Virus record (IMG/VR): IMGVR_UViG_3300046459_000436
Location: 16,674 to 80,673 of that record
Length of the DNA stretch: 64,000 nucleotides
From: a virus
Reading direction: 5' to 3' (one strand)
The notes under the pieces were generated by a model. The model did not search any database and had not been told where the DNA came from. It saw only the letters and a program-made list of their open reading frames with translations. Positions 14,156-26,816 of this stretch are shown here, one piece after another (the stretch's first letter is position 1; every line of letters begins with the position of its first letter). The position numbers and the translations under genes were made by a program.

Positions 14156-16384
14156 TCAGGCAGCCTCCGGGGAGGCGAACTGGTCCCGCTTGAAGCCCTT
14201 CAGGCGCTTCCCGGCACCGAAGGTCACGATGTTCGTTGTTGTGATCCCATCCCGGCGCAGACGCTCCCGCAGAGCATCCACATCAACGCCCAGCTCCTCG
14301 GCCAGCAACTCAGCCGTCAGCCCCTGCGTCTCCGGAACCCCCAGCCGATCGAACACCGCCACCGCATCCCGGCGCATCTCCGCCGCACGCGCCACCGCCT
14401 CATCGACACGACTACGCGACGCCGCCTGACCCGTCAGCGTCCCGGCCTTCACCCGCAGGTCGTAGCCGCGCTCCACGATCTCCCGGAACTCCGGCAGCTC
14501 GATCACATCGGACTTCTGCGTGATGTGACCCGACTCCGCACCCTGGTCCAAGACCACGACACCCTTGTGGTGCTCCAGCAGCTTGTGCGGCGCCGCGCCG
14601 GCCTGCACGGCGTCGTCGCCGAGAACCATCCGCGCGGAGGCGTCGCCCTTGACCCGAAAGCAGGCGCGCTTCACGCACACCCCGCGCAGCTTGGTCGGGA
14701 CGCTGTCGGAGTCGGGGCGCTGGGTGATGAACACGCCCATGCCGCCGACGAACCGGGCCACGCGCACGTACCGGGCGAGGGTCTCGACCAGCACGTCCTT
14801 GCCGTTGCGGTGCTTCGCGCCCTTGCCGTCCTCGTCCTCCTCGACGACCTTGACGCGGGTGTTCGCGGCGGCGTCCAGGAGTTCCTGGAGCTCGTCGACG
14901 ATGAGGAGGGTGAGCCTCTTGTCGGGCTGCCGGGCAAGCGCCGGGGTGAGCTTGCCTTCGGGGCACTGCTGGGGGTCGGTCTCGGACAGGCTCTCCAGCT
15001 GCTCGCCGAGGTTCTGCATGCTGCCGATCAGGTCGTCCAGCACCTCGTGGACTTCGACGAGGGTGTCCGGCTTGGAGCCGGAAATGTAGGCGTGGGCGAT
15101 CTTCTTGAGGGCTGCCCAGTCCGGCCCGGACTTGCCGGTGATGACGATGATCCGCACGTAGGGGTCGAGGGCAGCTGCAGCAGCGATCAGCCGTGCCAGG
15201 TACGACTTGCCGTAGTCCTGCAGTCCGCCGATCAGCAGCGACGACCACAGCAGGTGCAGTGCCTGCCGGTCATGCCGGGCGTCCTGGCCGAGCGGTACGC
15301 CGTGCTGCCAGAAGTTCCACTCGGGGGCGTTGATCAGGGGGGACGGGGTCTTTCCGGCGCCGAACGGGTTGTCGGCGTCGGCGACCCAGATGGTGAATCG
15401 GCTCTCGTGCCCCTCGGCGCTGGTGTCCTTCTTCAGTTCGATGCGGGACGCCTTGACGCGCAGTGCGCCGGCGAGCGGTACGAGGCGGGCGATGGCCTGC
15501 TCTGCGGTGCGTCCGCCGGGCAGTTCGATGGTGGCGGTCCAGCCGGGGCCGTCGGTGCGCAGGCCGAGGACGCTGGTCTCTTCGCGGTCGGCCTCCTCGA
15601 TGATCTTCGCTTTGACGAGGGCGGTGACCAGGTCGTTCGCACCCCGCACCTGCACGTCCTCGGACTTCGTGAGCACGACCGGACCCGCAGCACTCGCGGA
15701 GGCCGCGGCGGCGATGGTGGCGGGCGACTCAGCGGCCAGCGTCACCGGAGACGACTCCTTGTCGTCGGCTTCGCGGTTCCGCCCCGCCCACCAGGCCGCA
15801 CCGAACCCTCCGAGGAGGACGGCGAGGAGGCCGAGGATGGGGTGCTGCATCTTCCCCAGCAGCATCCAGCCGGCCACCACGCCCGCGGCGACCATGGCGC
15901 ACCGACTGGCCTGCTGGGTGCGCTTGTGGCGCTTGATGTCCTTCTCGGTGACGTCGTCGTCGGCGTGCGGGAGGACGGGGCCGACGGTGACGCGCGTGGC
16001 GAACGCCTGGTTGAAGCGGTCCGCCTGCCCGGGGTGCCCCTGGTTGGCGGCGGTGGCGGCCTGCTTCTGCAGGTCCCGGACTTCGCTGTGGTGCTGGCGG
16101 ATGGCCTTGCGGTTCTCGGCAGCCCGCTTGTGGATGACGTCCTTGGCGAGGTTCTCCTCGTCGACACCTTCAAGGAGCACCCAGGCGCGGCCCTGCTGGT
16201 AGAGGGTCTGGCAGCCGCGCTTGGTCTGCGCCCACACGGTCAGCTTGACGACCGGCGGCGGGGCATCGGCGGGCACCGGCTTGAGGAGTACGTGGGCGGG
16301 CGGGTTGGTGGGCATGGGCGGGACGTGATTCTGGACCGGGATCTGGGGGCCCGCCGTCTCGGGCGGGGTGGCGTGCGTGGTCAT
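14156..16384 (-). CDS. traB: FtsK/SpoIIIE-family conjugative DNA translocase (TraB-like)
   Basis: 2 TM segments, Walker A LLIGGLQDYGKS, Walker B LLIVDELQE, TQRP motif, C-terminal wHTH-like region. Confidence 0.88.
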   Translation of the reverse strand: MTTHATPPETAGPQIPVQNHVPPMPTNPPAHVLLKPVPADAPPPVVKLTVWAQTKRGCQTLYQQGRAWVLLEGVDEENLAKDVIHKRAAENRKAIRQHHSEVRDLQKQAATAANQGHPGQADRFNQAFATRVTVGPVLPHADDDVTEKDIKRHKRTQQASRCAMVAAGVVAGWMLLGKMQHPILGLLAVLLGGFGAAWWAGRNREADDKESSPVTLAAESPATIAAAASASAAGPVVLTKSEDVQVRGANDLVTALVKAKIIEEADREETSVLGLRTDGPGWTATIELPGGRTAEQAIARLVPLAGALRVKASRIELKKDTSAEGHESRFTIWVADADNPFGAGKTPSPLINAPEWNFWQHGVPLGQDARHDRQALHLLWSSLLIGGLQDYGKSYLARLIAAAAALDPYVRIIVITGKSGPDWAALKKIAHAYISGSKPDTLVEVHEVLDDLIGSMQNLGEQLESLSETDPQQCPEGKLTPALARQPDKRLTLLIVDELQELLDAAANTRVKVVEEDEDGKGAKHRNGKDVLVETLARYVRVARFVGGMGVFITQRPDSDSVPTKLRGVCVKRACFRVKGDASARMVLGDDAVQAGAAPHKLLEHHKGVVVLDQGAESGHITQKSDVIELPEFREIVERGYDLRVKAGTLTGQAASRSRVDEAVARAAEMRRDAVAVFDRLGVPETQGLTAELLAEELGVDVDALRERLRRDGITTTNIVTFGAGKRLKGFKRDQFASPEAA

Positions 16385-16407
16385 GGCGGCGGGGCTCCAG
16401 GCTTGGG

Positions 16408-16947
16408 TTAGAAGTTGGTGAGGGTGTTGGCGGCAGCGGTGACGGCGGAGTTGGTGAGCTGCTTGATCAGCGGGCCGACGAACGTCCCGTCCAGGAGCAC
16501 CCCGAGCGCGACGAGCGTGATCGCCCAGCTGGCGGCGACCTTCCGGCCCTTGATGCCGATGAACACGATCACGCCGATCAGCATCAGGCCGACGATGCCA
16601 ACGCCGATCGTGCCGCCGCTGACGTTCGCCGGCGTGACGTTGTTGACGGCCGGGGTGACGTTCGTGTCGACCACGGGGGCGACGGACGGCTGGACGGCGG
16701 CCACGGTGACGACCGCAGCCGAGTGGTCGGCGGTGGCCGTGTAGTGGGTGGTGGGCAGGCCCCGGACGGTCATGGCGCGGGTGCCGTCGGCGAGGCGGAC
16801 GCTGGTGTCGGTGGCGGCCTGGACGGAGGTCACGGTCGCGGTGTGCTGGGTGGCTGCGGCGACCGCCGGGGTGGCGATCCCGAGCGCCGCCAGAGCAGCA
16901 CCCGACAGGGCCACGGAGCGGACGATACGGATGGACTGGCGGGACAT
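16408..16947 (-). CDS. Signal-peptide/membrane protein, putative spread (Spd) protein
   Basis: N-terminal signal peptide, two C-terminal TM helices; adjacent to traB. Confidence 0.6.
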   Translation of the reverse strand: MSRQSIRIVRSVALSGAALAALGIATPAVAAATQHTATVTSVQAATDTSVRLADGTRAMTVRGLPTTHYTATADHSAAVVTVAAVQPSVAPVVDTNVTPAVNNVTPANVSGGTIGVGIVGLMLIGVIVFIGIKGRKVAASWAITLVALGVLLDGTFVGPLIKQLTNSAVTAAANTLTNF

Positions 16948-16967
16948 GATGGGGACTCCTTCGAGGG

Positions 16968-18389
16968 TCAGTTCTGGTCGGTGTTTGAGGTGTTCTCGGT
17001 GGCGAGCCGACGACGTACATCGACGGCCTGCGCGCGCTTTGCGATGGGGTGGAACGGGGCGCTGTCGCCGCGTGTCCGGCGGGGCGGAATCGGCTTCGGT
17101 CGGGGACTGGTTCGGGGCTTCGCGGGAGAGGGGGATAGATGGGAGCTACGCTGCGCGTTCGTGACCTTGCTGGGTGTGTTCCCGGGGGCTTCTGAGAGGG
17201 CCGCTGCGACGCGTCGTGCGGCGACGTTGCGGGTGCGGATGACGTCGACGCTGTCGCCCGGGTCGGTGCCCTCGATGTCTCTGTAGGCGCGGATCCAAAC
17301 GGCTTCGGTCACGGTCGTCTCGCCGAGCGCGGCAGCCAGCTTCAGTGCGTGCTCCCACACCTCCTGGAACTCCTTAGCGCGGTCAGTGGCGAGCTTGTTC
17401 GCGGCTTCCTCGGCAGCCTTGAGATCCGCCGCCTTCGCGTCGTCGGCAGCCTTCTTCTCTGCGGCCTTCCCGGCCGCCGCGCGGGCCTCGGCCTTCTCCT
17501 TCGCCTTGCGCTCCCGACGGGTGAGCGCGCCGTCACGCTTACGGATCCGGCCGTGCTCGTGGAGATCCCAGACGCCCGGGCCGGCGACGGACGCGAACGC
17601 GGTACCGATGGCGGTCGCCGGGTCGAAGGCGTTCAGGCCGTGCCACAGGTTGACCCCGGCGGCGATGAACGCCAGCAGCCACGCGATGAGCCGGTAGTGC
17701 CAGTGCGGACGGTGCCCGGCGACCGCGGCGGCAGCACCCTTGAGGACGACCGCCGCACCACCTTCGAGCATGAGCGGGGCGATCACGAGCCACGGGGCGA
17801 CGGGGGTCCAGAACGCGGCGATCTGCACAGGCAGGGCGACGACGGCGCACACGATGTAGAAGCCGAGGGCGTACCGGCGCCACCGGGCGTCGGCGACGGC
17901 GATCTCCTTCGCCGCCTTGTCGGCGGCTTCCTGCTGAATCCGCTGCTCCTCAGCGGCGGACTGCGCTTCGTCGTCGGCCTCCTTGCGGGAGGCGGCGGCC
18001 TGCCGGTCGATCTCCTCCTGCTCGGCCTGGAGTTCGGCGAGCTTCCGGGCGTGCGCGGCCTGCTTCTCCTCCATGGCCATGCGGTTGCGCTCGTTGGCGA
18101 GCCGCAGACGCTCCGCCTCAGCCTCGGCCTTGGCGCGGATCGCGTCGGCCTCGGCGAGGGCCTTCACGCGGGCGGCCTCGACGGCGGCGGCGGTCTGGGC
18201 CCGGATCGCCTCGGCCTCAGCCTCGGCGCGCGGGTCGACGATGGGGACGGGAGTGGCGGCAGGCTCAAGCTCGGGGGCGGTCTGCTCGTCCTGGATGACG
18301 CCGTTGATGATCGGGAACGACTGCCAGCCCTCATACACGGGCACGGCAAGCCGCTTGGTGCCGTTCACCTGGGCCGGGTTGGCGCTCAC
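16968..18389 (-). CDS. DUF2637/SpdB-like coiled-coil plus 4-TM protein
   Basis: Long coiled coil, four TM helices, AGVNLWHG; upstream of traB. Confidence 0.7.
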   Translation of the reverse strand: MSANPAQVNGTKRLAVPVYEGWQSFPIINGVIQDEQTAPELEPAATPVPIVDPRAEAEAEAIRAQTAAAVEAARVKALAEADAIRAKAEAEAERLRLANERNRMAMEEKQAAHARKLAELQAEQEEIDRQAAASRKEADDEAQSAAEEQRIQQEAADKAAKEIAVADARWRRYALGFYIVCAVVALPVQIAAFWTPVAPWLVIAPLMLEGGAAVVLKGAAAAVAGHRPHWHYRLIAWLLAFIAAGVNLWHGLNAFDPATAIGTAFASVAGPGVWDLHEHGRIRKRDGALTRRERKAKEKAEARAAAGKAAEKKAADDAKAADLKAAEEAANKLATDRAKEFQEVWEHALKLAAALGETTVTEAVWIRAYRDIEGTDPGDSVDVIRTRNVAARRVAAALSEAPGNTPSKVTNAQRSSHLSPSPAKPRTSPRPKPIPPRRTRGDSAPFHPIAKRAQAVDVRRRLATENTSNTDQN

Positions 18390-20860: not shown

Positions 20861-21063
20861 GACGCGAGCTCCTCGGGGGTCGGGTCGACGCCCGTCAGGG
20901 CGGCTTCGGGGACACGGATCGCTCCGCCGCCGCGCTGGGCGGGGGCGCCTACGGCCTGCGGCTTTCCGTACCGGATCGCCTCTAGGCGACCCTCCTGGAT
21001 CCACCGGTAGACGGTGGCGGGGTGCACGTTGAGGCGCTTGGCGACCTCCTTTACGCGCAGCAT
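20857..21063 (-). CDS. Excisionase-like HTH protein, first gene of the tra operon
   Basis: MLRVKEVAKRLNVHPATVYRWIQEGRLEA. Confidence 0.85.
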   Translation of the reverse strand: MLRVKEVAKRLNVHPATVYRWIQEGRLEAIRYGKPQAVGAPAQRGGGAIRVPEAALTGVDPTPEELAS

Positions 21064-21758: not shown

Positions 21759-22520
21759 GTGGTCAAGCACAAGGACAAGCGCGCCGTGGCTGAGCGCATC
21801 GCCGCGAACATCAGATTCCTGATCATGTCCGGCGAGTGGGAGCCCGGAAAGAAGCTCCCGACCAACAGCGAACTCATGGCGGACTACGGCACATCCAACG
21901 TCACCGTGCAGCGCGCCCTCGGAATCCTCAAGGACGAACTCCTCCTCGAAGGCCGGGCAGGCAGCGGCGTCTACGTCCGCGCGCGGGCACCTCAGACCAT
22001 CATCCCAGCGTCCTACATGGCACCCTCGGACCCCGGACATCCATACCGGTGGGTCACCGAAGCCAGCAACCGCGACCAGCACGGAAGTAACAGGATCCTC
22101 CAGGTCGCCGAGGTCGAACCGCCCAAGCGCGTCGCAAAGATCCTGGGCCTGGAGCCCGGCGACACGGCGGTTCTCCGGACGCGGGTCGGCCTCCTGGACG
22201 ACGAGCCGGCGGAGATGACGTACTCGTACTACCCGGCCAACCTTGCGCGGGGTACGCGCCTCGCTGACCGTCGGAAGATCCCTGGCGGATCGCCGACGCT
22301 GCTCGCAGAGATGGGCTACCCGCCCCGCGAGCAGGAGGACGAGGTGGCCGCCCGGATGGCGACGACCGAGGAGTACGAGCTGCTGGAGATCCCCGGCGAT
22401 ACGCCAGTGATCGAGGTCTTCCGGGTGGTCTACAGCGACGGCCGGCGCCCGATCGAGGTGACCGTGATGGTGAAGCCCGGCCACCTGTACAAGATGGGCT
22501 ATCACCTGCCGGTTTCCTGA
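21759..22520 (+). CDS. GntR/HutC-family regulator (KorSA/TraR-like)
   Basis: IMSGEWEPGKKLPTNSELMADYGTSNVTVQRAL...GSGVYV plus UTRA; divergent from the tra operon. Confidence 0.9.
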   Translation: MVKHKDKRAVAERIAANIRFLIMSGEWEPGKKLPTNSELMADYGTSNVTVQRALGILKDELLLEGRAGSGVYVRARAPQTIIPASYMAPSDPGHPYRWVTEASNRDQHGSNRILQVAEVEPPKRVAKILGLEPGDTAVLRTRVGLLDDEPAEMTYSYYPANLARGTRLADRRKIPGGSPTLLAEMGYPPREQEDEVAARMATTEEYELLEIPGDTPVIEVFRVVYSDGRRPIEVTVMVKPGHLYKMGYHLPVS

Positions 22521-22740
22521 CTCGGCAAGCCTCAGCCCCCGTCCGATGCGGCGGGGGCTCTGTGATGCATGGATGCGAAAGCTTGATACAAAAGCGAATA
22601 CGCCCTACTGTCGTTCCCGTGAAGGTGGCGCACGCCACAACACAAAGGCCGGACGGTTGCCACCGTCCGGCCTGGGATCAAAGCGGGGTGCAACCCGCCG
22701 ATCAGCTGAGGCCCCATCCGCCTGGAAGGAACTCTCGCCT

Positions 22741-23073
22741 GTGAGCGTACAACAGAGCACATCCGTTCGACCCATCGAGACCCCTGAGGCATCCGTCACG
22801 CCGCCCGCCCTCACCCTGCTGGCGAAGCTGTGGCAGTCGACGCCGCTCCCCCTGCTCCTGGAGGCCGCGAACGCCCGCGTCCTCGACTCGGAAGAGATCG
22901 ACGACGAATGGTTCATGGGCGCTGCGGTACAGCGCAAGGACGGCCGAATGTTCTTCGTGATGCCGCCCAACCGACCCGAGGTAGAGCGCGACACGATCGT
23001 TCGGGACCTGATGGCGCGGATGCTCCGCGTGCCACTGCCCGGGATGACACCCACCGGACGAGTAGCCGCATGA
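22741..23073 (+). CDS. Hypothetical protein with hairpin-rich leader (about 22645-22700)
   Basis: GGAAGGA RBS; coupled to the next gene. Confidence 0.6.
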   Translation: MSVQQSTSVRPIETPEASVTPPALTLLAKLWQSTPLPLLLEAANARVLDSEEIDDEWFMGAAVQRKDGRMFFVMPPNRPEVERDTIVRDLMARMLRVPLPGMTPTGRVAA

Positions 23074-23405
23074 CCGACGGCGGCATCCCCGACTACTACA
23101 TGGAGCGCGCGCGCTTCCTCGCCACCGTCAAGGACATCGGCGAGGGGACCGAGGTGGCCGACGCGGCGCTCGACCTGATGATCAGGCTGGAGAGTTCCAT
23201 CCAGTCACCCTGGGCCGTCACGGACCCGTTCGCCGCCGAGCGCTACCTCGTGGCACGCGGAGCCGACCCGGACGTCGCATCCGAGGAGGGTGTCGTCTTC
23301 GAGATCCAGATGCGCGCCCTCGTCGGCATCGGCCTCGGACGCCCCGTCCAGTCGTTCGACGAGATCGCTGACTGGATCGCCGAACACGTCGACACCACCC
23401 CGTAG
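23070..23405 (+). CDS. Hypothetical protein
   Basis: ATGA overlap with the previous gene. Confidence 0.6.
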   Translation: MTDGGIPDYYMERARFLATVKDIGEGTEVADAALDLMIRLESSIQSPWAVTDPFAAERYLVARGADPDVASEEGVVFEIQMRALVGIGLGRPVQSFDEIADWIAEHVDTTP

Positions 23406-23406
23406 T

Positions 23407-23428
23407 TGTCAGTCCCTGCCCGTATCGT
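23407..23428 (+). promoter_or_regulatory. PafBC/RecA-NDp-type DNA-damage promoter upstream of tnpB
   Basis: TGTCAG-N10-TATCGT matches TGTCRG-N10-TANNNT. Confidence 0.65.
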
Positions 23429-23457
23429 CCACCGTGCCGCACCCGAGAGGAGGCCCC

Positions 23458-24975
23458 GTGCAGACCGAGATCCTGAAGGCGTTCAAGTTCGCGCTCGACC
23501 CGACCAGCGCTCAGATCGAGGCCCTGTCGAGGCATGCGGGTGCGGCGCGGTGGGCGTTCAACCACGCACTCGCGGCGAAAGTCGCGGCGCACGAGCAATG
23601 GCGTAGCGAGGTTGCCGCGCTGGTCGAGGCTGGCACTCCCGAGACGGAAGCGCGCAAGAAAGTGCGCGTGCCGATCCCGATGAAGCCGTCGATCCAGAAG
23701 GCCTTGAACCAAGTCAAGGGCGACTCGCGCACGGGAATTGACGGTGTGTGCCCCTGGTGGCATGAGGTCAACACCTACGCCTTCCAGTCCGCATTCATCA
23801 ACGCGGACCGCGCGTGGAAAAACTGGCTCGACTCCCTGTCCGGAAAGCGCGCTGGCCATCGAGTCGGCTATCCCCGATTCAAGAAGAAAGGGCGGACCCA
23901 GGACTCATTCCGTCTGCACCACGACGTAGACAAGCCAAGAATCCGGCTTGCTGGTTACCGTCGGCTGCGCCTGCCAACAATCGGCGAGATTCGGCTGCAT
24001 GACTCGGCGAAGCGTCTGTCACGATTGATCGACCGTGACAATGCGGTGGTGCAGTCGGTGACGGTGTCTCGTGGCGGTCATCGCTGGTACGCCTCCGTCC
24101 TGTGCAAGGTCGTCGTGGATGTCCCAGCGAAGCCGACTCGGCGACAGGCCGGGCGGGGCACCGTGGGAGTAGACCTCGGGGTGAAGTACCTCGCAGCACT
24201 GTCGCAACCGCTCACGGAAGGCAACGAGTCAACCCAACTAGTCCAGAATCCCCGTCATCTACGCCGCACGGAGAAGCGCCTGACGAAGGCGCAGCGCTCT
24301 CTATCTCGAACAGTCAAGGGTTCTGCGCGGCGAGAGAAGGCCAAGCGCCGCGTCGGCCGGCTGCACCACGAGGTGGCGGCACGCCGCGCAAGCGCCCTAC
24401 ATCAGGTGACCAAGCGACTCGCCACTGAATTCGCCGTGGTGGCCCTTGAGGACTTGAACGTCGCCGGGATGACGCGATCCTCTCGGGGCACCGTGGCGGC
24501 GCCGGGGAAACGGGTGCGACAGAAGGCCGGGCTGAACCGAAGCGTTTCGGATGCAGCTCTAGGTGAGTTCCGGCGGCAGGTCACCTACAAGACTTTCTGG
24601 TACGGGTCGAAGCTGGCGGTCTTGGATCGCTGGTTCCCGTCGAGTAAGACCTGTTCGATGTGTGGGTGGCGAAACCCAAACCTCACGCTCAAGAACAGGG
24701 TGTTCCACTGCGACAACTGCGAGACGGCCATGGACCGGGACCTGAATGCAGCCCGGAACATCGCGCGCCATGCGGTGCCGATTGATCAACACGTCGCCTG
24801 CGATACGCGGGAGACGAAAAACGCCCGTGGAGCCCCTACAAGACCGACCATCCCTCGGGATGGCTGGCAAGGAGCGTCGAAGCGGGAAGACGCGGCTCGC
24901 AAGGCCGCGCCACCCCAGCGGAGTAATCCGCTGGCACTCCCACCCGTGGGCCACGGACAGATCACGCTGTTCTAA
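23458..24975 (+). CDS. tnpB: RNA-guided endonuclease TnpB / Cas12-like (505 aa), no tnpA
   Basis: KAFKFALDPT N-terminus; RuvC-I GVDLG, RuvC-II ALEDL, Zn finger CSMC...CDNC, RuvC-III DRDLNAARN; catalytic D-E-D intact. Confidence 0.93.
   Translation: MQTEILKAFKFALDPTSAQIEALSRHAGAARWAFNHALAAKVAAHEQWRSEVAALVEAGTPETEARKKVRVPIPMKPSIQKALNQVKGDSRTGIDGVCPWWHEVNTYAFQSAFINADRAWKNWLDSLSGKRAGHRVGYPRFKKKGRTQDSFRLHHDVDKPRIRLAGYRRLRLPTIGEIRLHDSAKRLSRLIDRDNAVVQSVTVSRGGHRWYASVLCKVVVDVPAKPTRRQAGRGTVGVDLGVKYLAALSQPLTEGNESTQLVQNPRHLRRTEKRLTKAQRSLSRTVKGSARREKAKRRVGRLHHEVAARRASALHQVTKRLATEFAVVALEDLNVAGMTRSSRGTVAAPGKRVRQKAGLNRSVSDAALGEFRRQVTYKTFWYGSKLAVLDRWFPSSKTCSMCGWRNPNLTLKNRVFHCDNCETAMDRDLNAARNIARHAVPIDQHVACDTRETKNARGAPTRPTIPRDGWQGASKREDAARKAAPPQRSNPLALPPVGHGQITLF
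24790..24965 (+). ncRNA. Putative omega RNA scaffold plus guide overlapping the tnpB 3' end
   Basis: Hairpins CCATCCC-TC-GGGATGG, GCGGC-TCGCAAG-GCCGC, CCAGCGGA-GTAA-TCCGCTGG; GGGAG...CTCCC closing; boundaries approximate. Confidence 0.6.
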
Positions 24976-24990
24976 CAGCATGATCGGCGA

Positions 24991-25146
24991 GTGCCCGACC
25001 TGGGTGTACAGGGAGCGATCATCCGAGCATTGCGAGATGTGCCGCCGCCACTTGGACCTAACCCGGGCACGCACGGAGTGATCGGAGACCTCTGTGTCTC
25101 GTCGATGCACCTGGTGCTGTCCAGTCCAAGGGTGCAGGGAGCGATT
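24991..25146. CRISPR. Degenerate CRISPR-like mini-array: three 28-30 bp repeats at an exact 63-bp period
   Basis: Repeats at 24991-25020, 25054-25083, 25117-25146; consensus RYCYRRYCYRRGNRYRCASGGAGYGATY; unique 33-bp intervening sequences. Confidence 0.45.
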
Positions 25147-25309
25147 GAACTTCTCGCAGCCGCTGAGCCAAGAGGTGCCACCGTGTCCCCTGCGCCCCGT
25201 GTTGCCGCCCCGTCGGTGACGCCCGCCACACTCTCCGCCCGCCCCGTTGCCACCCCCGCAACGCCCGGCCACCCTGGCGTCCTCACCGTGGCGACAAGGG
25301 GGCCGGGTC

Positions 25310-25633
25310 ATGATCTGTCCGTCAGGCAAATGCGGATCGTCGAACGTCGAGTCCCTGCCGCACTACTGGCAGAGTCTCCCCTCGGACAGCCCTCTGAAAG
25401 CGCAGTACGCGGAGCCGCCGGTCGTCGCGGCCCAGTACCTGTGGGCGGTCGGGGGCATCGTTCTGGGTGTGATGACGCTGGCTCGGAGCGTGGTGGCCGG
25501 CCTGCTGTTCGTGGCCCTGGGCGTGGCGTGGTGCGTCGCCACGCATCGGCAGGCGGAGGCTGCGGATTCTGCGCGCGCGGAGTGGGGCAGCTCGCTGATA
25601 TGCCTGGCGTGCACCGGGCAGTTCCTGCCCTGA
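25310..25633 (+). CDS. 2-TM membrane protein with split Zn ribbon
   Basis: CPSGKC ... two TM helices ... CLAC. Confidence 0.7.
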   Translation: MICPSGKCGSSNVESLPHYWQSLPSDSPLKAQYAEPPVVAAQYLWAVGGIVLGVMTLARSVVAGLLFVALGVAWCVATHRQAEAADSARAEWGSSLICLACTGQFLP

Positions 25634-25893
25634 GCTACCCCCGAGCGCAGCAAAGAGCCCCCGGGCCCGTTGTGGGCGCCGGGGGCTTCGTCGGTTCTGC
25701 TGACCGTGGGGTTCGTAAGTAAATCGCGCACACTTTCGATTTGCTTACGATGCCGTCCCGGGTCTCCCTACTCACAGGTAGGGCCGTTAGTGTGGACTCG
25801 ATTGGATGGTTCTCCGCACACCATGGGTCCGCCGAGTCGCATGTGGGGGCGACTCGACTACGGTGGAAGCGAGGAACGCAGAGGGGACCGATC

Positions 25894-26346
25894 ATGGCCA
25901 ACGTCAACGACGTAGCCGCATACATTCTGGCCAAAGCCGCACCGATGACCGCCATGAAGCTGCAGAAGCTCTGCTACTTCGCCTACGGCTATCACCTGGC
26001 ATGGGAAGACCGGCAGCTCTTCCCCGAACGGTTCCAGGCCTGGGCGAACGGCCCCGTGTCCCCCACCCTGTACGACAGGCACCGCGGGCGGTTCCAGCTG
26101 AACCGCGGCGACATCGCCGGCGACCCGTCCGTACTGGACGAGGGCGAGTGCGAGACGGTCGACCTGGTCCTTGACGCGATGGGCGGCTTCTCCGCGCACG
26201 AGCTGTCGGGCATGACTCATCGGGCGGGCCCGTGGCTGGCCGCCCGCGAGAGGGCCGGTGCCGCCGATCTGGAGCGGTCCACCGAGGAACTCCGCGACGA
26301 GGACATAGAAGATTTCTTTGGGGCGCTGGCGGGCAGCGACGACTGA
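25894..26346 (+). CDS. Panacea/SocA (DUF4065) antitoxin
   Basis: VAAYIL...MTAMKLQKLCYFAYG...LFPERFQAWANGPV...LSGMTH..GPW. Confidence 0.9.
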   Translation: MANVNDVAAYILAKAAPMTAMKLQKLCYFAYGYHLAWEDRQLFPERFQAWANGPVSPTLYDRHRGRFQLNRGDIAGDPSVLDEGECETVDLVLDAMGGFSAHELSGMTHRAGPWLAARERAGAADLERSTEELRDEDIEDFFGALAGSDD

Positions 26347-26816
26347 TGGTCAAGGGGGGAAAGCCGAAGAAGCGGCTCGCTGTGCCCCCGATGGGGCCTG
26401 CGAGCGGCAAGCAGATCGGCAACGCCAAGGGCCTGCTCCCCGGAGCGGGCAACTCGTCCGAGCGGTTGTGCTGGCGCTTCACCTATGTCGATCACGAGAG
26501 CCGCTGGGACTTCTGCGCCATCACGCCAGAGCTGATGTGCGAGATCTTGGGCAAGATGGCCGACTGCGAGTCCATGACCATCGACGAGCTGCGGAAGACC
26601 TGGCGGCTGTTCAAGGATTACGAGTTGCCGGGCGGCCTGTGCAAGGAAGCTCTCGACCGTTTGACGGCGACGGGCCGCGATGACCAGACGAAGATCCAGC
26701 GTCTGGAGTTCAAGGGCACGCAGCGGCTGTACGGCTTCCTCGAAGACAACGTCTTTCACGTCATCTGGTGGGACCCGGACCACGAGGTCTACCCGTCCAC
26801 GCTGAAGCACACCTGA
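26346..26816 (+). CDS. Putative cognate toxin (RelE-like RNase fold)
   Basis: TGATG coupling to the antitoxin; QRLYGFLEDNVFHVIWWDPDHEVYP. Confidence 0.65.
   Translation: MVKGGKPKKRLAVPPMGPASGKQIGNAKGLLPGAGNSSERLCWRFTYVDHESRWDFCAITPELMCEILGKMADCESMTIDELRKTWRLFKDYELPGGLCKEALDRLTATGRDDQTKIQRLEFKGTQRLYGFLEDNVFHVIWWDPDHEVYPSTLKHT

Follow-up and report, generated by a model that had tools for sequence, protein, structure and literature searches.

A nuclease gene followed by periodic repeats in a phage genome

What is a single TnpB-sized nuclease gene, followed by three evenly spaced copies of a short sequence, doing in the genome of a phage? The question is posed by IMG/VR virus record IMGVR_UViG_3300046459_000436, of which we analysed bases 16674-80673, a stretch of 64 kb that we call the window and number from its first base. 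A first-pass annotation had taken the gene for a domesticated TnpB caught half-way towards Cas12, with the capture of a CRISPR array under way just downstream. Our computational analysis leads to another answer. The locus is very probably a compact type V-N (Cas12n) cassette, borne by a phage, whose three-guide array has decayed from a canonical array with repeats of 28 nucleotides (nt) and spacers of 33 nt.

The nuclease gene belongs to the Cas12n family

23458..24975, plus strand: cas12n, type V-N effector of 505 amino acids (aa) with a GTG start (domains, structure match, ortholog alignment)
23445..23453, plus strand: ribosome-binding site GAGAGGAGG, 4 nt ahead of the GTG start (read from the sequence)

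The product of the open reading frame (ORF) carries the Pfam domains HTH_OrfB_IS605 (PF12323), OrfB_IS605 (PF01385) and Cas12f1-like_TNB (PF07282), a TnpB domain set that is common to Cas12n and mobile TnpB and does not discriminate between them. The top match among solved structures was RdCas12n (9J09; phmmer E 1.2e-94), with ISDra2 TnpB far behind (E 1e-56). When aligned to RdCas12n, the RuvC triad D239/E331/D428 fell on D287/E386/D484, and the TNB-domain zinc finger of CCCC type (C399, C402, C418 and C421) was matched as well, in agreement with the intact RuvC nuclease of 505 aa initially described; the catalytic triad and the four cysteines were invariant across 12 orthologs. The protein also contains, as FRLHHDVDKP, the HHDV motif of the AcCas12n clade, the element that reads the protospacer adjacent motif (PAM) in AcCas12n-like enzymes (PMC12216341). 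It was 74% identical to the ortholog of Actinomadura craniellae (locus L028), which bears out the suspected kinship with actinobacterial Cas12n, and 74-76% identical to the set L028, L005 and L002; a phylogenetic tree placed it among array-bearing Cas12n relatives. On account of the 9J09 match, the identity to the A. craniellae protein, this nesting in the tree, the catalytic residues and the HHDV motif, we assign the gene by its sequence to the published Cas12n family (type V-N, formerly V-U4) and not to the solo TnpBs. For residues 1-435, the ratio of nonsynonymous to synonymous substitution rates (dN/dS) was 0.12-0.13 at a dS of 1.2-1.5, and the sequences indicate that cas12n is under strong purifying selection in the phage lineage. 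By analogy with AcCas12n, we infer that the enzyme would cleave double-stranded DNA under RNA guidance at a 5′-AAN PAM.

The same Pfam domains and the match to the ISDra2 TnpB structures would also suit a mobile TnpB element of IS605/IS607 type that uses an omega RNA, in which case the periodic units would be incidental. This reading is highly improbable. The neighbouring ORFs contained no transposase domain and cas12n occurs only once in the phage genome, in line with the lack of tnpA noted at first. Furthermore, homology to relatives is confined to 23405-24944, with flanks that differ at every locus, and those relatives are linked to arrays.

Three units downstream of the gene are homologous to Cas12n repeats

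24993..25020, plus strand: repeat 1, 28 nt, contiguous with the scaffold RNA described below (repeat model E 0.015)
25021..25055, plus strand: spacer 1, 35 nt (unrelated to the other spacers)
25056..25083, plus strand: repeat 2 (repeat model E 0.0055)
25084..25118, plus strand: spacer 2, 35 nt (between repeats 2 and 3)
25119..25146, plus strand: repeat 3, nearest to the family consensus (repeat model E 2.5e-5)
25147..25181, plus strand: spacer 3, ~35 nt (after repeat 3)

The first-pass annotation had described three 30-nt units ending at 25020, 25083 and 25146, with a period of exactly 63 bp, 12 invariant columns and 14 further columns that differ by transitions only. All of these counts proved exact, and the sequences between the units were, as stated, unrelated, with a mutual identity of 25% that equals background. 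An independent view of the units was provided by a repeat model, which is a sequence-only covariance model made from the ortholog-adjacent repeats in Actinomadura and Streptomyces, with the window sequence excluded, and which was applied, unfiltered, to both strands of the entire window. The top three matches were 25119-25145, 25058-25083 and 24993-25020, followed by a fourth-best match at E 0.56. Repeat 3 was in addition 89% identical to the lone repeat of ortholog locus L015. Tandem Repeats Finder reported no array over the region because the units are only 54-68% alike. These comparisons identify the three units, at the level of sequence, as homologs of Cas12n repeats, and the proposal that the nuclease has a multi-guide array of its own beside it was upheld.

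A period of 63 bp is divisible by 3 and might instead reflect a translated repeat of 21 aa, encoded in the minus-strand ORF 24559..25329 or in the plus-strand ORF 24991..25722. Indeed, over 24880-25180 the GC content peaks at one codon phase, which fits the minus-strand frame. We find a translated repeat hardly credible, since the homologous units in relatives have a period of 61, which cannot be coding, and since a phase signal is expected from any 63-nt unit that is repeated. The alternative, which the first-pass annotation had itself raised, was thus not borne out. The minus-strand ORF was also rejected as a gene, as its product is rich in Arg and Gly, matches no family and overlaps cas12n by 416 nt.

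Conservation is unevenly distributed along the units. Their last 12 nt, here called the handle, were 83% identical to one another and 75-92% identical to the A. craniellae repeat; their first 16 nt were 44% identical, with the spacers at 25% and background at ~30%. The same uneven decay, with the handle kept, was found in L002 and L004. On the minus strand, a 10-nt handle motif ([CG]GGAG[CT]GAT[CT]) has isolated copies at 20926, 37498 and 63349, where ~0.85 per strand is expected; these three copies lack any wider similarity to the repeats and are probably due to chance.

Solitary phage-borne repeats can serve as RNA anti-CRISPRs, and the units might accordingly mimic host repeats, of type I-E or of a host Cas12n, and soak up host Cas proteins. 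The canonical repeat of the family, with its I-E-like geometry (28+33 = 61 nt), would suit such a decoy. It is nevertheless very unlikely, because a cognate nuclease and a matching anti-repeat stand immediately upstream and because decay, to 44% identity, has struck precisely the 5′ hairpin part to which a Cas6-type protein would bind; the anti-CRISPR array considered in the first-pass annotation gained no support. The likeness to type I-E repeats extends to geometry only. The A. craniellae repeat, for its part, was confined to the Cas12n array, and no match to Cse1 was detected in the genomes of A. craniellae or L004, a weak test given that its control was positive in 1 of 14 genomes.

The 3′ end of cas12n contains a putative tracrRNA

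24824..24941, plus strand: putative trans-activating CRISPR RNA (tracrRNA) scaffold in the ORF tail; its 5′ end may lie ~50 nt further upstream (RNAalifold, synonymous divergence)
24824-24886, 24891-24909 and 24915-24934, plus strand: conserved scaffold helices (RNAalifold)
24935..24941, plus strand: anti-repeat CACUCCC (pairs with 25011-25017; covariation)
24942..24992, plus strand: variable linker between anti-repeat and repeat 1, including the cas12n stop codon (poor ortholog alignment)

In the known layout of Cas12n loci, the tracrRNA overlaps the ORF and the C-terminal tail of the protein is disordered (PMC12216341). We aligned 220 nt ending at the first repeat from 19-20 loci and folded them with RNAalifold, which gave 38 consensus pairs, 20 of them with compensatory changes, the anti-repeat:repeat helix included. 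This final helix joins the anti-repeat to the 3′ part of the repeat (GGGAGCG, 25011-25017), and covariation between loci affects four of the seven pairs, as in CAUCCCC/GGGGAUG and CGUCCCC/GGGGACG. The covariation confirms the idea that a GGGAG/CTCCC pairing closes the scaffold. Over residues 436-505 the dS was 0.49-0.50 and the dN/dS 0.5-0.7, and such a low dS in the ORF tail fits an overlapping functional RNA. An Rfam scan returned nothing above noise. Taken by its sequence, the 3′ end of cas12n thus holds a putative tracrRNA. A fourth, weaker repeat copy had been claimed to end at 24963; it was missed by the repeat model and falls in the variable linker, and 24942-24961, previously read as a guide, is likewise linker between the anti-repeat and repeat 1.

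The protein ends in QITLF-stop (24958-24975), and nine of the 32 orthologs, that of the window among them, share a Q-x-x-L-F-stop ending. This ending resembles the beta-clamp-binding pentapeptide. The codons for QITLF coincide in part with CUGUUCUAA, which is conserved within the RNA region, and either constraint, on the protein or on the RNA, could explain the shared ending.

The degeneracy of the array is derived

A scan of bacterial genomes yielded 42 loci related to that of the window, chiefly from Streptomyces, Nonomuraea, Nocardiopsis and Actinomadura. Comparison of the regions downstream of the orthologs, which the first-pass annotation had advised, showed that most full-length orthologs carry a canonical array right after the stop codon, with a 28-nt repeat, a 33-nt spacer and a period of 61; the repeat counts, 3 to 15, are those inside the fetched flanks, and the A. 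craniellae locus has a 10-repeat array. Short degenerate arrays resembling that of the window were present in L002, L004, L012, L017, L020 and L023, while L015 has one repeat and a few other loci have none. Erosion of the array down to the handle was also observed in Cas12n loci on bacterial chromosomes, namely L004 (4057-4320), L012, L017, L020 and L023. Judged from these sequences, array erosion has recurred within the Cas12n family and is not restricted to phages.

The window protein came out as sister to the viral copy L002 (support 98/95) in a maximum-likelihood tree built from 32 orthologs. L004 branched next (83/83), followed by L005 and L028, whose arrays are perfect, and canonical arrays occurred on more distant branches too. 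Because the nearest relatives and the outgroups bear canonical arrays, the degeneracy of the window array is read from the tree as derived: a secondary decay that has arisen several times in the family, and not a nascent state. What had looked like the capture of an array is the decay or minimisation of one.

The carrier of L002, a 63-kb phage (G003), has several genes that are collinear with those of the window phage at 45-77% amino-acid identity. Its cas12n occupies the corresponding region of the map, with different immediate neighbours and a 2-unit degenerate array, and the identity of 76% between both nucleases compares with that of the best-matching genes common to the two phages. These observations fit a long residence of cas12n in the phage lineage, or its entry more than once into one variable region. 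Besides the window phage, array-bearing relatives (42-75% identity) were found on the IMG/VR contigs of L002, L003, L058, L059, L060 and L077.

Retention of the handle and the search for targets

Retention of the handle is what would be expected if adaptation and Cas6-type processing had ceased to act and pairing with the tracrRNA still mattered. The selective way in which it is kept provides moderate evidence, drawn from the repeat sequences, that the guides are still used. Unit 2 can form six contiguous pairs with the anti-repeat (GGAGUG/CACUCC, read from the sequence).

Several observations weigh against a working three-guide array. The mean identity of the units is only 0.61, and their period is 63 nt instead of the 61 nt of the family. 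Units 1 and 3 pair at six of the seven anti-repeat positions, with one A-C mismatch, and the first G is missing from unit 2. The repeat model had no match downstream of spacer 3, so that a terminal repeat was not found. The retention of the handle itself rests on few units: three here, two in L002 and five in L004. Finally, a protospacer for any of the three spacers was absent from all collections searched. Searches of the spacers against cultured phages and plasmids, with E values up to 10, gave chance matches only, and the target that the first-pass annotation had hoped to find by this route did not appear. Exact 20-mers of spacers 1-3 were not found in IMG/VR, nor those of spacers 1-2 in the JGI metagenomes, and the phage's own genome holds no target. 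Among 401 Streptomyces genomes, the best per-genome E value was 0.001, which is chance at that number. In the reverse direction, the matches of 181 spacers from ortholog arrays to the window phage and G003 did not exceed 20 nt.

The array could therefore be a relic in which only the cis unit, or no unit, is in use. In such a case cas12n and its tracrRNA would be functional, with a single cis guide as in TnpB or kept for another reason, and units 2-3, perhaps also unit 1, would be unusable leftovers. The degenerate repeats, their shifted period, the mismatches in the helix and the failure to find targets in the collections searched all favour a relic, as do L015 with its single repeat and the orthologs without any; array minimisation followed by re-emergence of an omega RNA is, moreover, a published trajectory (PMC10691335). 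Against it speak the non-uniform decay, with a handle well preserved and the remainder near background, the 63-nt period that is exact twice, and the same pattern of decay in L002 and L004. On balance we hold a relic to be rather unlikely, if a serious contender. If the PAM is that of AcCas12n, the array should not be its own target, because the repeats end in ATC or ATT, which differ from AAN.

A DNA-damage-type promoter motif precedes cas12n

23406..23428, plus strand: PafBC/RecA-NDp-type DNA-damage promoter motif, TTGTCAGTC-N8-TATCGT, 30 nt before the start codon (consensus match)

The region upstream of cas12n contains a match to the RecA-NDp (PafBC) consensus, tTGTCRgtg-8nt-TAnnnT (PMC5656591). 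In its strict form this pattern occurs once in the entire 80.7-kb phage. At 22 of 34 ortholog loci the motif lies at most 110 nt upstream of cas12n, compared with three occurrences elsewhere in the 428 kb scanned; the loci that bear it include that of the window, L002, L004-L018, L020, L022 and L031. At the nucleotide level, L002 and L004 are homologous to the window from 23405-23407 onwards, ~50 nt ahead of the start codon, which is where the motif lies. A scan for a consensus sigma-70 promoter and for a terminator found neither. The distribution of the motif suggests that type V-N effectors are under DNA-damage control in Actinobacteria, a form of control that is not mentioned in the Cas12n literature cited here. 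Single-stranded DNA is known to activate PafBC (PMC11804915).

The carrier phage and the surrounding island

~21759-26816, plus strand: island amid a minus-strand genome, containing cas12n and the array

The virus record is 80,673 bp long, has direct terminal repeats and a GC content of 69%, and was judged 100% complete. Among its products, encoded for the most part on the minus strand, are a portal protein, a DnaB-like helicase, a RecT-like protein and a cytosine methylase, and this portal shares no more than 27% identity with its counterparts in cultured Streptomyces, Gordonia and Arthrobacter phages. The carrier is thus a complete, soil-derived actinophage with the cas12n cassette inside an accessory island, and the earlier claim of a phage-borne element stands. 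Blastn searches of the region against cultured phages gave zero matches. The same phage DNA was also present in contigs from two soil or rhizosphere studies, one of them being the probable source sample; a second soil run contained identical phage fragments at low depth, which left the array uncovered and so provided no strain variation.

The island comprises a GntR/UTRA regulator, unannotated ORFs, cas12n with its array, a small membrane ORF rich in Cys and a SocA/Panacea-domain protein. The GntR/UTRA regulator (21759-22520) and an FtsK/SpoIIIE-like, TraB-type ATPase (14156-17020) both lie within this tailed phage. The cas12n of L004 is also near a GntR/UTRA gene, merely 29% identical to that of the window, and a cassette shared with L004 beyond cas12n was rejected given how little the two regulators have in common; the surroundings of L004 contain GntR, PNPOx, DUF6907 and DUF7341, a set that does not clearly mark it as a prophage. 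Directly past the array, an ORF of 107 aa (25310-25633) has a strong coding signal and CxxxxC and CxxC motifs around a hydrophobic segment; it matched no family. Further along, a SocA/Panacea-domain protein (25741-26346; Pfam E 3e-15) is overlapped or followed by an ORF with no assigned function (26232-26816), and from their sequences the two may form a toxin-antitoxin pair within the cas12n island.

Comparison with known systems

The closest characterized relative is AcCas12n of A. craniellae, a tracrRNA-dependent enzyme of 506 aa with an AAN PAM (PMC11641405), also called type V-N, V-U4 or C2c9 (Chen et al. 2023, Mol Cell, cited by way of PMC12216341 and PMC11641405). Both systems share, beyond their sequence identity, a near-equal protein length, the HHDV motif, a tracrRNA in the ORF tail and an array directly past the stop codon, and unit 1 has the same handle as the A. 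craniellae repeat, GGGAGCGATC. They differ in that the A. craniellae system is chromosomal and has 10 near-identical 28-nt repeats with 33-nt spacers, whereas the window system is on a phage and has three units, 54-68% alike, with 35-nt spacers. The anti-repeats are CACUCCC and CGCUCCC, respectively. RdCas12n of Rothia dentocariosa (PDB 9J09/9UDI), which is monomeric, TnpB-like and uses a tracrRNA with a 40-nt CRISPR RNA (crRNA) (PMC12216341), belongs to the same family, and its catalytic triad and zinc finger align with those of the window protein. It is of another clade, with a PAPEK loop in place of HHDV for reading the PAM and a PAM of AAC vs AAG (PMC12216341).

ISDra2 TnpB (PDB 8H1J, 8BF8) resembles the window system in fold and domains and in a scaffold that overlaps the 3′ end of the gene, and unit 1 of the window is contiguous with that scaffold in the manner of an omega RNA. 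Unlike ISDra2 TnpB, the window gene has no transposon ends or TnpA, is present in a single copy and is followed by tandem guides, and its relatives are array-linked. Minimisation of the array and re-emergence of omega RNAs have been described for Cas12f-derived lineages (Altae-Tran et al. 2023, PMC10691335), in which the array has likewise shrunk toward the tracrRNA-contacting portion of the repeat; those lineages have inactivated nucleases linked to RpoE, whereas the window phage has an intact nuclease and retains three units. CasPhi/Cas12j and Cas-lambda of huge phages are similar in that a compact effector and/or a short array resides in a virus without adaptation genes, and archaeal viruses carry mini-arrays. 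These virus-encoded systems presumably serve conflicts between mobile elements. They differ from the window cassette in their effector family, in their well-kept repeats and in viral targets that are often identifiable.

A model for the cassette and its significance

Together, these features suggest the following course of events. The PafBC/RecA-NDp-type promoter at 23406-23428 would drive cas12n, perhaps upon DNA damage, and the last ~150 nt of the ORF would double as the tracrRNA scaffold. The 7-nt anti-repeat is predicted to pair with GGGAGYGAUY, the handle conserved at the 3′ end of every repeat. Unit 1 would fold in cis with the scaffold, similarly to the omega RNA of TnpB, and units 2 and 3 would act in trans as crRNAs. 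The complex of Cas12n, tracrRNA and crRNA would then cut DNA that matches a spacer and carries a 5′-AAN PAM, the target being perhaps a rival mobile element or host DNA. Because adaptation machinery is missing, the 5′ two-thirds of the repeats would have drifted, with selection acting on the handle, the tracrRNA and the nuclease; this points to a small fixed set of guides rather than an adaptive array. We tentatively extend the model to the lineage formed by the window phage and G003, in which a hard-wired, non-adaptive cassette, whose repeats drift has trimmed to the 10-12 tracrRNA-pairing nt, may be switched on by the PafBC response of the host, which senses single-stranded DNA, and fire its fixed trio of guides against host DNA or a competing element during DNA damage or abnormal replication. 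We see this extension as possible, with the odds somewhat against it.

The Cas12n family is already regarded as an early intermediate between TnpB and Cas12 (PMC12216341, PMC11641405), and the cassette is not a new kind of system. What is particular here is the phage carrier, the decay down to a handle with 35-nt spacers, and the conserved DNA-damage promoter. The finding extends to actinophages the host range of Cas12n, a family known on bacterial chromosomes and put to use for miniature genome editing, and at least seven IMG/VR contigs carry array-bearing relatives. The decayed arrays amount to a natural mutagenesis experiment that may suggest the minimal repeat for AcCas12n-type enzymes and be of use in compact multiplex guides. 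If the extended model is true, the phage would provide a natural minimal array of multiplex guides, and type V effectors would be tied to the actinobacterial DNA-damage regulon.

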